Of a stretch of 64,000 bases of DNA, positions 17,122 through 21,775 are shown piece after piece. The DNA lies in contig JAVVEA010000002.1 in the NCBI GenBank assembly GCA_032250835.1, positions 246,596 to 310,595 of the forward strand, written 5' to 3'. The notes beneath the pieces are model-generated. The model had not been told where the DNA came from. It did not search any database and saw only the letters and a program-made list of their open reading frames with translations. The position numbers and the translations under genes were made by a program. Every line of letters starts with the position of its first letter. Position 1 is the first letter of the stretch. Source of the stretch: a bacterium. GTDB lineage: Bacteria > SAR324 > XYD2-FULL-50-16.

Positions 17122-18071
17122 TCAAGAAGCTCAAGCTAAAATTCAACCTAACCAACAACTGGCCCCAAAAGCTGGTGGCTTTGGTGCTGGCTTGTTTTAT
17201 CTGGGCTATGGCCCCTTCGCCTAGTAAGAAAGGGCTAACGGAGATCCAATTTTTTGTGCCCGTTAGTTACATCAACACGCCCAAAGATCTAGAGATGACC
17301 AGCACGCCCTTGCAGACCGTCAGCGTGGTGGTCGAGGTGCCGCCCCGCGATCTGCCCGACGTGCATCCCTCGAATTTTCAGGCAGTGATCGACCTAGACG
17401 GTGCGGCTCCGGGCACGCGCAAGTATAAGATCCACAAGCGGGCGATCAAAGCCCCCAAGGCGGTCAGTATTGTTCAGGTGAACCCTGAATCGGTTGAGAT
17501 CACTTTTGAAAAGGCGATCACCAAAGAGCTACCGATCCAACCGGTCCTGGTTGGCACTCCGGCGCAGGGCTATGTGCTGGAAAAAGTCACCATGATTCCC
17601 GCCCGCATCGAGGTCCACGGACCTGCCCGTAGTTTAGAAGGGGTGGACCAGCTAGAGACGAAGGCGCTGAACATTGAAGGAGTCAGCGGCGAGATCGAGA
17701 TGTTCGCCCAGATTGCTTGGCCCGAGGGGGTCAAACCGACGCCTGCGGCACCGGACAACTTCACGGCGCGGATTCAGGTAGGCTCCGAGCCGGTCAGTCG
17801 GAGGTTTGATAAGATCCCCATTGGCGTGGTCAACCAAACTTACGTCACCCGGATCAACCCGAAAAACTTCAACCTCCTGATCCGAGGGCCTAAGTCTTTG
17901 GTGGACTCGATGACTATCGACGACATCCAGGCCTTCATCGACCTAAAGAGTTATAAGCCCGGCACCTATAAGGTCAAACAGCCCACCGTAAGGCTGCGCC
18001 CGGAACTGCAAATCCAAGAAGCTTGGCCGCCTATCGACGTGTGGGTGCTCAACCAAAAGATTTACGAATAG
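17118..18071 (+). CDS. cdaR: CdaR/YbbR-domain regulator
   Basis: NW..KL.AL..A..IW N-terminal TM, three YbbR-like repeats, ATGA overlap with cdaA. Confidence 0.88.
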
Positions 18072-18073
18072 CC

Positions 18074-18796
18074 ATGCCCAAACTGCACATCAACGTTGAC
18101 CATATCGCCACCATCCGCCAAGCCCGACTGACCACAGAGCCAGACCCGGTATATGCGGCCTTGATGGCTGAACAGGCCGGGGCCGACGGGATCACCATCC
18201 ACCTGCGCGAAGACCGCCGCCACATCCAAGACCGGGACTTGGCTCTTTGCCGTCAAATGGTCCAGACCCGATTGAACCTGGAAATGGCGGCCACCGATCA
18301 GATGACCGAGATTGCGCTGAACCAAAAGCCGGATATTTGTACCCTAGTGCCCGAAAAGCGCGAAGAGGTGACCACAGAAGGCGGTTTGGACGTAAAGGCA
18401 GCTCAAGAAAAATTGCGGCAGATTATGCCTGCCCTGAAAAAAGCGGGCATCCGGGTCAGTTTGTTTATCGACCCCGAGAAGGAACAGATTGATCTCGCCG
18501 CCCAGTTGGGTGCCGATGACGTGGAATTACACACCGGCGAATATGCCAACGCCACCGGACCGGCGGAGTTAAGCCAACTAGTCCGGTTGGCCCAAGCCGC
18601 CAGCTACGCCCACGGACTGGGGTTGCAGGTCAACGCCGGACACGGCCTGACCTACTTCAACGTGACCCCCGTAGCGGCGATCCCCGAAGTAGCCGAGCTG
18701 AACATCGGCCATAGCATCATCTCTCGCGCCACCTACGTAGGCATCGACCAAGCGGTCCGCGAAATGATCACCCTGTTGGCCAAAGCCCGCGCTTAG
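18074..18796 (+). CDS. pdxJ: Pyridoxine 5'-phosphate synthase
   Basis: [36 protein letters not shown]. Confidence 0.97.
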
Positions 18797-19063
18797 GTTG
18801 AATGTCTTGAGGCGGCCAACTTGGGGGCTTTAGCAGGGCCAAGGTGCCGCCTAAAACAAACATACCAGGCTGGTCATCATACAACTCCGCTCCTTATATC
18901 TGTTCTATGGGCGGGGCCCCGCTCCTCTTCTTAGCCTTCTCGGGCCGTTAATTTCCAAAACACTCGTCGTTGCAAAGTCTCATCATTGGAATGCGTTCCT
19001 TTGACTTATCAAGATGAAATTGACTTTGAGTTTTATTATATGATAAAAAGGGGCAAAGGTGCT

Positions 19064-19212
19064 GCAACTGTGCCTGGACCCCTGTTGTTGCCGAAGCTAC
19101 TAAGCAAGCTGTATTCAAGATTGACTCTATTTTTCCTCTATCTTGGAATGTTTTTCCGTGTGTAACAGGGGCTTATTGGAAAAACAGTCCAGATAGCAAA
19201 AGGAAAAATATG
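19064..19212 (+). promoter_or_regulatory. Structured 5' leader (RBS-sequestering hairpin plus loop-loop pairing), unknown family
   Basis: Hand-folded: 19128-19158 pairs with 19177-19210 (about 29 bp including AGGAAAAATA); loop AACAGGGG (19164-19171) is complementary to CCCCTGTT (19079-19086). Confidence 0.6.
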
Positions 19213-20925
19213 AGCCTCTCAGATCCTGCCAAGTTTCTAAAAGATAAAGCGAAACTCCTCCGTCGTCAGCTTAAAAACGCCACTTCTCTAGGTAGTCAAA
19301 CCGCTGCGCTTGAAGCTGTAGCATTTAGCTATACTGGAAAATCATGGGACTGGTGCGCCCATCAAAACAGGGTAGGGAAACTGACGATTCGCCCAAGTGA
19401 TTTTTCAATAAGTCGATTTCTTGAGTATACTCGAATACCCACAGAGGTTGGGCAATTGATAGAATATCGAGTGTTCCGTTGGCGAAAGCATAACGAACCT
19501 ATTGATGTTATTATTCAACCTGCAACTGAAGCGGATTTTCAAAAGATCCTTGATTGGCTTCAAACGGAGCAGGACTCTGAAGGTTTAGGGTTTTACGGTA
19601 ACCGTAACATTATCGCAGACCATTTTGAAGAAGGTGAATTGATCGTTGCAAAAACGAAAGACGATTACCCGGCTGGGTTTATTACAGGACCCATTGCCGG
19701 GCCAGATATTCTTTCAGTACAGAGTGATTTCAGGAATAAGGGCGTTGGCAAAAAACTGATTGAATACGTTATTGCGGCGGCCAGGGAAGCAGGGGAGTGT
19801 GCGATAAAAGTTGACATCAATCCTCGGACAGCAATTCCTTTTTATAAGAAACTAGGATTTCAGGTATCTGAGTCCGAAAATGCTAGGTCTGTGACCGGGT
19901 GGCTAACGTTGGAAAAGAGCATGCAACTTCCTGCCGGAACCCCAGTCCAACTAGAGATTAAGTTTTATCCAGAAAGTAAAAAATGGAAAGAAACAACAGA
20001 GCCGTTATCTACAGTCTTTCCCAACGCGATTAAAATCAAAAATGGATTGATTCATCTGAGTGAAAGAGTGGTGTTCAATTACTCGAATTATTCGGCTGTT
20101 CGAGATCCTGTTATCTCAATATCTGTCAACGGGAACGAGCTATATTGCGATAAAGCAAAGTATAGTGAGGCAAAAGTATTGGGAGTAAAACGGCATTCTC
20201 ATGGTTACTACATTGAAACATTGAGGCAACCTTTTGAGGTTATTGAGTATGCTAGGGCGGGCAAAGAGGTGGTGGCTTCCATTACAAACCTACAGTTGTT
20301 TCCAAATTGCAATCACCTTTACACCACATTGAATCGCCTTTTTCGTAAAGGTCAAAATCATGCAGAAGACTGGTTTGACTATACTGCAGAAAAGAACGCT
20401 TTTAGAAAAATCGAAAAGAAACTTGGTGGAATGGAAGCCAACAATTCGCAGGATATTGGGTTGGACTACTGCCTAAAACACGGTGGAGTGGATGGGTTTA
20501 TTTTTGCCCTAAATACTATACCAGAATTTGGAGATCCCATCCTCCGCCAATTTTTTGCGAAAGTGTTGGCGGATTTGGATCCAATTGTTCAAAAACGATT
20601 TCCCGGAGACGAAACGATTCAGCGGGCAATCACTGCTTTATTTGAAGGAAAGCACGCAATCCAGGACCCTTTTTACCGTATTTATGCTGAGAAATTAGAC
20701 CGAACCGCCAATATGGTCAGAAGAACAGTAGAATATGCATTGCGGTCATTTGGCAATTTGCATGCCCGAGGTTTTCAGTATGGGGTGGTTGAACATGCAA
20801 TTTCTGCGATTGTAAGTAGTGCCGGAATTGAGAGTTACAATGAGCAAAGTTCGCCTGAAGCAAAAAAACTAGCAAGATCGGAACGGGCTCGCTTCAAGAA
20901 GCTGGCAAATCAATATTTTAAGTAA
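19210..20925 (+). CDS. Multidomain protein: short helical N-terminal module + GNAT acetyltransferase + unknown C-terminal domains
   Basis: GNAT motif A V..DFRNKGVGKKLI and motif B N..AIPFYKKLGF; N-terminus K.KAK.LRR.L...ALEAVA...G.SW; visibly more AT-rich than its flanks. Confidence 0.75.
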   Translation: MSLSDPAKFLKDKAKLLRRQLKNATSLGSQTAALEAVAFSYTGKSWDWCAHQNRVGKLTIRPSDFSISRFLEYTRIPTEVGQLIEYRVFRWRKHNEPIDVIIQPATEADFQKILDWLQTEQDSEGLGFYGNRNIIADHFEEGELIVAKTKDDYPAGFITGPIAGPDILSVQSDFRNKGVGKKLIEYVIAAAREAGECAIKVDINPRTAIPFYKKLGFQVSESENARSVTGWLTLEKSMQLPAGTPVQLEIKFYPESKKWKETTEPLSTVFPNAIKIKNGLIHLSERVVFNYSNYSAVRDPVISISVNGNELYCDKAKYSEAKVLGVKRHSHGYYIETLRQPFEVIEYARAGKEVVASITNLQLFPNCNHLYTTLNRLFRKGQNHAEDWFDYTAEKNAFRKIEKKLGGMEANNSQDIGLDYCLKHGGVDGFIFALNTIPEFGDPILRQFFAKVLADLDPIVQKRFPGDETIQRAITALFEGKHAIQDPFYRIYAEKLDRTANMVRRTVEYALRSFGNLHARGFQYGVVEHAISAIVSSAGIESYNEQSSPEAKKLARSERARFKKLANQYFK

Positions 20926-21190
20926 ATCAGGGGGCAGCACTTGTTTTATTTCAGAGGGTGTACCGCTAGTCACCCCCTCAAGCATCGCTGCGCTCGCTTA
21001 TCGGGGTGAATCCAGCGCGTTGTCGCCAATCTGGGCCGAGATTAAAGTCTAAGCCTTTGCTTTTTTCACGGGCTGGGTACACTTCCTTAAAGCGCTGGAA
21101 TATTGAGGCCTTGCTTTTTTGGAGCGCACCTTCATCCCTCAAGTCCTTTCGAAGGGGCGCTGCCCCCTCGGCGGCTCCGCCTCACAACGC

Positions 21191-21331
21191 AGCTTCGAGG
21201 CCGAAGATCGAGGACTCGTTTCTTTGCAACATTTCCATTAGGTGTTGGCTTCACCAACGACTTAGGCTGCGCAACCGCCGCCAGCTCGCGTCGTCACAGA
21301 CGTCACCCTCGGCCTGCGGCCTTGAAGCTCC
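21191..21331. repeat. Degenerate copy of the palindromic repeat family, with terminal inverted repeat
   Basis: GTTGGCTTCACCAAC (21244-21258), GCTCGCGTCG and CCCTCGGCCTGCGGCCTTGAAGCTC match the 46.5-kb unit; AGCTTCGAGGCCG (21191-21203) is inverted relative to CGGCCTTGAAGCT. Confidence 0.65.
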
Positions 21332-21402
21332 TTAGTGGGCCGATGGCCCCTGGACCCCACTTATTTTTTTCTCTATTCGCTCCGCGCCTTTTATTTCGCC
21401 CC

Positions 21403-21460
21403 CAAACAAAAAAAAACCGGAGCTTTACCCAAAAGGGTAACGCTCCGGTTTCTGTTTTTT
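21403..21460. terminator. Bidirectional intrinsic terminator
   Basis: AAACCGGAGC-T-TTACCC-AAAA-GGGTAA-C-GCTCCGGTTT stem with an A-tract on the left and a T-tract on the right. Confidence 0.7.
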
Positions 21461-21478
21461 GCTCGCCCTTACCTAGTC

Positions 21479-21775
21479 TTAATCGCCCGAATAGGTGCTG
21501 TCGATGGTGATGATCTGCGCGCAATGGCCCATGCTGTCGCCTCGGGTCTTGCTGATCGGGGAGGCGTTATGGCGCATGTCCAGCTGGCGTTGGATATTGG
21601 ACTTCAAACACCAATACTTGGTGTTGCCGTGGGTGCGCAAGATACAGCGGATATTGCTTTCGAGACATACCTTGGGCTTCTTGATGCCCCGTACCGTATC
21701 GTTCGCCGCCCAGGCAGGCAGGGTTAGCCACATTGCCATTAGGGCCAGGGCTAGGGTTTTTTTTAGAGCACTCAT
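21479..21775 (-). CDS. Small secreted hypothetical protein with 4 Cys
   Basis: Signal peptide MSALKKTLALALMAMWLTLPAWA; followed by the terminator. Confidence 0.6.
   Translation of the reverse strand: MSALKKTLALALMAMWLTLPAWAANDTVRGIKKPKVCLESNIRCILRTHGNTKYWCLKSNIQRQLDMRHNASPISKTRGDSMGHCAQIITIDSTYSGD

Follow-up and report, generated by a model that had tools for sequence, protein, structure and literature searches.

Within the window analysed here, a 64,000-nucleotide stretch of contig JAVVEA010000002.1 from a bacterium of the SAR324 lineage, an 83-nucleotide inverted repeat (19128-19210) runs up to the start codon of a 571-codon gene for a fusion protein with a GNAT acetyltransferase domain. 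The 3' arm of the repeat carries the Shine-Dalgarno (SD) sequence of that gene and ends on the A of its ATG. We suggest, with a probability of about 0.55, that the repeat is a lineage-specific, cis-acting hairpin in the 5' leader of this horizontally acquired gene, where it holds translation in the off state. Transcripts with both arms, beginning either at a promoter-like site upstream of the structure (P1) or in the pdxJ operon by read-through, would fold into a stem of 28-32 base pairs (bp), and with the SD and start codon forming the 3' arm the 30S subunit could not bind, so that the protein would be made at a very low level. Most likely the hairpin would serve to silence a foreign gene and to guard it against transcription from outside, as do the leaders of IS200 and ISPpu9. 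Three points in this are inferred: an RNA start upstream of 19128, the repression of translation, and selection for that repression.

A long hairpin over the start codon

RNAfold places 19120-19215 in a single long hairpin of three stacked helices (10, 9 and 9-10 bp), both as the minimum free energy (MFE) structure and as the centroid structure. Its parts are as follows.

19128-19157, plus strand: 5' arm (anti-SD arm), with the three helix segments 19128-19137, 19138-19147 and 19149-19157 (sequence reading; MFE and centroid fold)
19158-19177, plus strand: apical loop of 18-20 nucleotides (nt), holding AACAGGGG at 19164-19171 (sequence reading; fold)
19178-19210, plus strand: 3' arm, holding the SD AGGAA (19201-19205) and the A of the start codon (sequence reading; fold)

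As read from the sequence, the outer helix pairs TATTTTTCCT (19128-19137) with AGGAAAAATA (19201-19210). The second pairs CTATCT-T-GGA (19138-19147) with TCCAGATAG (19188-19196), leaving T19144 bulged, and the third pairs TGTTTTTCC (19149-19157) with GGAAAAACA (19178-19186), which RNAfold extends to 19149-19157/19158 and 19177/19178-19186. A 4-nt bulge, CAAA (19197-19200), and an A/G mismatch mark the helix junctions, and the stem as a whole is imperfect. Bases of the apical loop are unpaired with probabilities of 0.92-0.99, apart from the last one (0.22). All the pairings that a preliminary description of the leader (19064-19212) had listed are present, and RNAfold recovers the same long hairpin.

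The MFE of the hairpin is -34.6 kcal/mol, compared with -17.3 ± 2.96 kcal/mol in dinucleotide shuffles (z = -5.84; 0 of 200 shuffles as stable), a stability that far exceeds chance. The entire 181-nt leader is less striking than the hairpin (z = -2.12), and is equalled by 5 of 200 shuffles. We also ranked the hairpin among the inverted repeats of the whole genome (3.66 Mb in 43 contigs), taken as 9-nt exact seeds within 110 nt, of which there were 1649 candidates and, after removal of overlaps, 1583. With the fold energy corrected for guanine-plus-cytosine (GC) content from 20383 background windows on contigs C1-C6, the leader hairpin takes rank 20 among the 1583 repeats, and 11 of the 20383 background windows are equally extreme. 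Those ranked above it are mostly terminator-like, with perfect stems of 15-25 bp, loops of 3-5 nt and A and T runs on either side. At C4:97741, C10:66072, C33:318 and C38:74830 lie perfect hairpins of 20-25 bp with 3-5 nt loops, more stable than the other inverted repeats of the genome and presumably two-way terminators; at least one of them has A/T-run flanks. The number of pairs in unbranched MFE hairpins was also tried as a measure and dropped, as it did not discriminate.

In a transcript from 19056 (185-nt leader context) the SD bases are each unpaired with a probability of at most 0.03, and the ATG on whose A (19210) the 3' arm ends is the first possible start of the 571-codon frame. The opening cost of a start site, defined as the free energy needed to keep positions -15 to +3 unpaired in a context of -90 to +30, was computed for 1474 long open reading frames (ORFs) with an SD-like word upstream. 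It amounts to 17.1 kcal/mol for this gene (rank 30 of 1474), against a genome mean of 8.66 kcal/mol (standard deviation 3.42), and is reached although the leader region has a GC content of only 38%. The burial of the ribosome-binding site and start codon, as proposed in the preliminary description, is hence borne out by computation, and the occlusion is strong and uncommon, though not unique. Three further low-GC leaders bury their SD at a like cost of 17.7-17.9 kcal/mol (C9:73231 on the plus strand, C38:236158 and C2:11115 on the minus strand), and two of these genes are low in GC too. An Rfam scan of 18000-21500 on both strands returned four weak matches (E = 0.014-8.7) and none over 19064-19212, as had been expected.

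The insertion and its gene

The leader and the gene lie in DNA that seems to be foreign to this part of the chromosome, of which the main features are listed here.

18797-21478, no strand assigned: insertion relative to related genera, with a low-GC core at ~18950-20950 that contains the leader and the gene (pdxJ/98-amino-acid ORF spacing in relatives; GC profile)
18909-18924, plus strand: short terminator-like hairpin after pdxJ, a 6-bp stem followed by CTCTTCTT (terminator scan; weak)
19210-20925, plus strand: the regulated gene, 571 amino acids, with an N-terminal helical module, GNAT, a beta-rich domain and a helical C-terminal extension (Pfam, HMMER, structure model)
21405-21460, no strand assigned: I1, an inverted repeat that resembles a strong two-way terminator, at the insertion's right end, with 26-nt arms, 85% complementary, and A/T-run flanks (repeat search)

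Upstream of the insertion and co-oriented with the gene are ftsH, folP, cdaA, ybbR and pdxJ, while a 98-amino-acid ORF, recR, ybaB and dnaX follow downstream on the opposite strand. The gap between pdxJ and the 98-amino-acid minus-strand ORF is only 35 and 48 nt in two related genera. In three other genera the same junction is filled by a minus-strand gene of ~365-380 amino acids with a CxxxCxxC-type radical-SAM motif (L013 2215-3406; L015 194-1500; L027 308-1500). Because the relatives have either a short junction or a different gene at this place, 18797-21478 is taken as an insertion at a variable spot; a search of the insertion for remnants of the radical-SAM gene found none. The core of the insertion has a GC content of 38-47% in surroundings of ~56%, and the low-GC stretch begins ~260 nt before the ATG. 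Since the leader shares the low GC of the gene, it arrived together with the gene and is no artefact of the junction. Read-through from pdxJ into the insertion is plausible, because pdxJ is followed only by the weak 6-bp terminator-like hairpin.

The GC-rich right part of the insertion (20970-21371) consists of dispersed repeat units, of which copies of 70-250 nt with 71-97% identity occur on many contigs. A direct repeat, CCTGGACCCC, at 19073 and 21349 was considered as an att-like duplication and rejected, since the right copy lies within the dispersed repeat and the leader is otherwise unlike it. Neither phages nor plasmids gave a blastn match to the insertion DNA, and tblastn against phages was likewise negative.

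The encoded protein is assembled from parts of very different distribution. Pfam detects GNAT at residues ~130-225 and, below threshold, aligns residues 8-50 with the beginning of PF20066, and the AlphaFold model is confident at residues 100-340 only, with generic GNATs as its matches in the PDB. An exhaustive HMMER search gave 592 proteins, nearly all of ~245 amino acids, that match residues 100-340, i.e. GNAT and a conserved beta-rich domain. The helical C-terminal extension is shared by just one of the 592 (P0002, 460 amino acids), which is also the one partial relative recovered by a word-based protein search, and the first 97 residues are shared by none; the sole recovered locus of P0002 (L035) ends inside the gene and offers no upstream sequence to compare. 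Peptide-pattern scans for the 571-amino-acid protein found no relative in genome, metagenome or viral contig collections. The protein was not found in 40 relatives, nor its profile in 87 other genomes of the phylum, and PADLOC gave no match for the gene. For the N-terminal 97 residues a word search returned no relative, and the genome holds no second copy of them. In Atlas searches the N-terminal part led, below threshold, to small proteins bearing PF20066, and nothing usable came up for the C-terminal part. The GNAT-core family itself is present in 13 plasmid records of Proteobacteria, and in the four contexts inspected it is a lone gene next to umuDC, transposases or an integrase. The gene is a near-orphan, horizontally acquired GNAT fusion, built on a widespread and unstudied family of ~245-amino-acid GNAT plus beta-domain proteins that is found on plasmids.

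The N-terminal helical module (PF20066 positions 7-59; 19210-19500 in the window) also heads proteins with unrelated output domains, and it matches 47 plasmid records. Its partners are an FGE-sulfatase (L055 1486-1665; L056 766-1752, minus strand), a FliN C-terminal domain (L057 1459-1640), pentapeptide repeats followed by a separate GNAT gene (L061 686-1189) and, in the window, GNAT. One of these N-module genes, in a class-level relative, has a start-burying hairpin of its own (L057 1379-1461), which has 8 G-U pairs and folds at -25.7 kcal/mol on the sense strand and at -5.8 kcal/mol on the other, a clear RNA signature; it shows no sequence similarity to the leader in the window. Upstream of the FGE-sulfatase N-module genes, L055 1404-1458 and the matching stretch of L056 form a 55-nt block of 91% identity with a 7-bp inverted repeat, CAGATAG/CTATCTG. 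The same heptamer pair occurs in helix 2 of the window hairpin, but this 9-nt match (E = 1.4 in a four-sequence search) probably arose by chance.

Weighing the alternatives

How the hairpin would act depends on where transcripts begin and on what else the leader contains. The following features of the leader bear on this question.

19020-19049, plus strand: P1, promoter-like, TTGACT, 18-nt spacer and TG-extended TAAAAA, with a predicted start at ~19056, upstream of the whole structure (relaxed consensus scan, 9/12; not in the stricter scan)
19040-19165, plus strand: upstream open frame with ATG at 19040, in-frame GTG at 19070 and stop TAA at 19163-19165 in the hairpin loop, spanning the whole 5' arm (within ORF 18986-19165)
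19064-19091, plus strand: weak stem-loop GCAAC (19064-19068)/GTTGC (19087-19091), whose loop carries CCCCTGTT at 19079-19086 (-3.6 kcal/mol; competes with the pairing of GGGG 19050-19053 and CCCC)
19121-19149, plus strand: P2, promoter-like and inside the 5' arm, TTGACT (19121-19126), 17-nt spacer and TGGAAT (19144-19149), with a predicted start at ~19156 (consensus 9/12, poor -10; not in the stricter scan)
19205-19232, minus strand: antisense promoter-like site, TTGGCA, 16-nt spacer and TATTTT, which would give an antisense RNA across the hairpin (consensus match only, 9/12)

Several observations weigh against a selected translational hairpin. The leader appears to be an orphan with no homologue in anything searched: it has one copy in its own genome, the 88 genomes of the phylum gave six matches, each only 22-52 nt long (per-genome E of 8e-4 to 8e-3), that we take as chance, and exact hairpin patterns had 0 matches in the genome contig and viral contig collections. 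A structured start region was found in 0 of 8 GNAT-core homologues (7 plasmid, 1 metagenome), where the opening cost is 4.1 to 10.9 kcal/mol (z = -1.2 to +1.7), and the opening cost reaches at least 14 kcal/mol in only 2 of 15 N-module genes, one of which is L057. The 15 N-module genes comprise three from the phylum (6.1, 9.5 and 14.2 kcal/mol; fold z = -0.1, -0.03 and -3.25) and twelve from plasmids (3.1 to 15.1 kcal/mol; fold z = -2.96 to +1.09), picked for taxonomic spread among the 47 records. A conserved structure upstream of homologues, the lack of which the preliminary description had named as a refutation, was thus not found in these sets, and because leader homologues were not found and start-burying is rare among GNAT-core and N-module genes, we regard the hairpin as lineage-specific. 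In addition, 29 other start regions of the genome match or exceed its opening cost, so that strong occlusion is not unique; many of them are probably internal positions in GC-rich coding sequence wrongly called as starts. The stem is nearly all Watson-Crick, with 2 G-U among 34 predicted pairs, and the minus strand folds as well as the plus strand (-33.6 and -34.6 kcal/mol); there is no sequence mark of an RNA rather than a DNA feature, nor of a selected strand. Finally, were transcription to begin downstream of 19157, the gene's own mRNA would not contain the hairpin, and the promoter placements are consensus matches only.

Because of the almost purely Watson-Crick stem and its equal stability on both strands, the repeat might be a DNA-level palindrome without any RNA role, be it a protein-binding or recombination site or a neutral local inverted duplication that overlaps the start by chance. 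The L057 hairpin, with its many G-U pairs and its strand difference, provides a contrast that favours this explanation, as does the missing conservation that would argue for selection on the RNA. What speaks for RNA, however, is the position of the repeat: its 3' arm holds the SD and stops precisely at the start codon, a placement that a translational element needs and for which a DNA site has no reason, and any transcript across the region must fold in this way, so that the SD would be occluded whatever the origin of the repeat. With 83 bp, a centre of 20 nt and three helices offset from one another, the palindrome also differs from usual operators, and the repeat is single-copy in the genome. 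Integron attC sites have the core sites RYYYAAC and GTTRRRY at the palindrome ends and lie downstream of the cassette ORF, but the arm ends here, TATTTTTCC... and ...GGAAAAATA, do not fit such cores and the element is upstream of its ORF, which led us to reject an attC site. A palindrome acting solely as DNA is in our judgement unlikely. The preliminary description had instead seen a riboregulator whose SD-burying hairpin an 8-bp loop-loop pseudoknot (19079-19086 with 19164-19171) would lock or tune, and which would answer a signal in trans, for instance from a protein, phage infection or an antisense RNA. The loop sequence AACAGGGG is indeed the exact 8-nt complement of CCCCTGTT, with a duplex energy of -12.6 kcal/mol, and both partners are largely free in transcripts that begin at 19056 or later, where opening them costs 1.2 and 1.5 kcal/mol; the minus-strand promoter-like site at 19232-19205 could furthermore yield an antisense RNA. 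On the other hand, if the 5' end lies at 19050 or 19040, GGGG (19050-19053) pairs with the CCCC of the upstream partner, and freeing it costs 5.9-8.1 kcal/mol. The match was spotted by eye and post hoc. When the 138 nt upstream were shuffled with their dinucleotides preserved, 98 of 5000 shuffles (2.0%) gave the loop a match of at least 8 nt; with both flanks allowed the rate was 5.2% (2000 shuffles), and in real sequence 175 of 5999 genomic positions of like geometry had such a match (2.9%; 13 of 462 in the low-GC subset). A partner for the loop in trans was sought elsewhere in the genome, where no complement of 13 nt or more occurs and the three matches of 12 nt equal the chance expectation. 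The loop contact alone would also not free the SD. The exact match is present, but a tertiary kissing contact is not supported beyond this one match with a chance rate of 2-5%; as judged from the folding energies and shuffles, the contact would be energetically feasible and marginally unusual, and is probably fortuitous. For the proposed switching, neither a partner nor a ligand nor an alternative fold was found, and we consider the pseudoknot riboregulator decidedly unlikely. The more ambitious version of this idea is that the leader is the founding case of a new riboregulator, in which the long SD-burying hairpin, locked by the 8-bp loop-loop contact to the upstream stem-loop and released in trans by a protein, by phage infection or by an antisense RNA made from the promoter-like site of the opposite strand, gates a GNAT fusion whose N-module also heads genes with other output domains (FGE-sulfatase, FliN-C, pentapeptide), at least one of them (L057) with a strand-specific start-burying hairpin. 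This version strikes us as most improbable.

Two other explanations place the control in the 5' arm. If P2 were the working promoter, the native mRNA would lack the anti-SD arm and be translated, while read-through from pdxJ or further upstream would carry both arms and stay silent, and the hairpin would then serve solely as a fold-back shield. This scheme agrees with the predicted P2 start, which falls on the 3' edge of the 5' arm, with the weak fold of a transcript from 19156 (-18.6 kcal/mol over 105 nt), in which the SD region is mostly open, and with the co-oriented housekeeping operon directly upstream with a weak terminator between. Yet P2 matches the consensus at only 9 of 12 positions, lacks the A at position 2 of its -10 and is absent from the stricter scan, and promoter-like sites in the 3-kb region are no commoner than in shuffles (5 found, 3.3 ± 1.8 expected). 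Among the papers listed by a literature search none contained the term 'fold-back inhibition', which would describe the IS10 and IS50 precedent. A shield of this restricted kind remains doubtful to us. By eye, no sigma-54 type -24/-12 spacing fits in the leader, and a scan found no terminator for the putative minus-strand antisense RNA. Alternatively, a ribosome that translates the upstream frame and ends at the TAA in the apical loop (19163-19165) could unwind the 5' arm and free the SD, either by coupling or, if stalled, by attenuation of the cat/erm type. The frame from 19040 or 19070 to 19165 covers the entire 5' arm, and the regulated gene encodes an acetyltransferase, the leaders of some drug-modifying genes being known to act in this manner. 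Against this, no convincing SD precedes the ATG at 19040, and before the GTG at 19070 there is only AAGGTG, right at the 5' terminus of a transcript from P1, while in a 5-codon frame at 19148 GGA abuts the ATG. In cat, cmlA and erm, a leader ORF with its own SD lies over the 5' arm; here there are overlapping frames, none of which has a properly spaced SD. The putative 41-residue peptide of 19040-19165 has a basic start and a Phe/Leu-rich tail, but T-rich sequence yields Phe/Leu-rich frames by chance, and the frame has no homologues. Control by upstream translation consequently looks very unlikely.

The translational off hairpin that we prefer might be opened in several ways: transcription could start within the 5' arm, an antisense RNA could act on it, ribosomes could translate the upstream frame, or RNase III, for which the long perfect duplex would be a likely substrate, could cleave it.

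Related modes of control and their meaning

The closest parallels seem to be found in insertion sequences. The 5' untranslated region of IS200 tnpA has an inverted repeat (nt 69-138) that sequesters the SD and so blocks or weakens 30S binding, and the element also carries a terminator against impinging transcription and an antisense RNA, art200 (PMC4513863). Our element shares with this layout an inverted repeat of roughly 70 nt that lies in the leader of a gene carried by foreign or mobile DNA, with a 3' arm that contains the SD/start. In the window there is also a promoter-like site on the minus strand opposite the leader, which makes an antisense RNA a candidate at the level of consensus. 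Unlike IS200, the gene is a GNAT fusion in single copy, without a transposase or insertion sequence ends, and there is no sequence or Rfam match. The 5' untranslated region of the ISPpu9 transposase likewise buries the ribosome-binding site, mutations weakening the fold raised a reporter 26-fold, and an antisense RNA is proposed to open the leader (Asr9/Ssr9; PMC8450116). With that system our leader has in common its length and the predicted burial of the ribosome-binding site, but it shows no homology, small RNA genes were not identified here, and both the gene class and the host lineage are different.

Several other systems share single traits with the leader. The elements IS10 and IS50 are protected from outside promoters by the fold-back of read-through transcripts. 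The promoter-like site inside the 5' arm is possibly a similar arrangement, as only read-through would carry both arms, but this internal promoter is weak by consensus and there is neither a transposase nor terminal repeats. In the repZ/repA leaders of IncI-alpha and IncB plasmids a pseudoknot activates rep translation and requires translation of a leader peptide, while the Inc antisense RNA targets the loop. The preliminary description drew an analogy to these leaders, and in both cases the SD lies in secondary structure and a hairpin loop pairs with a distant single-stranded stretch, the latter being a candidate pairing here. The analogy nevertheless fails on layout, as a rep gene, a plasmid context and an SD-bearing leader peptide are all missing here, and the loop is part of the inhibitory hairpin itself. 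As in fourU and ROSE RNA thermometers, a U-rich stretch pairs with the AGGA of the SD. These thermometers are short and marginally stable, and we rejected this class for our element since a stem of 28-32 bp with -34.6 kcal/mol is too stable to melt physiologically and has no Rfam match.

Control by a start-burying hairpin is of a well-known kind, and it is found here on a gene that does not encode a transposase. At present the finding is one well-formed hairpin in one genome and not a new RNA family, and with 83 nt, three helices and one candidate tertiary contact the element makes a short test object. If the hairpin works as suggested, a single-gene foreign insertion behind a housekeeping operon would be kept translationally silent without a repressor protein, and the gene would represent a non-transposase addition to the style of control known from IS200 and ISPpu9. 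Such tight control of the GNAT fusion hints that its product may be costly or only conditionally useful.

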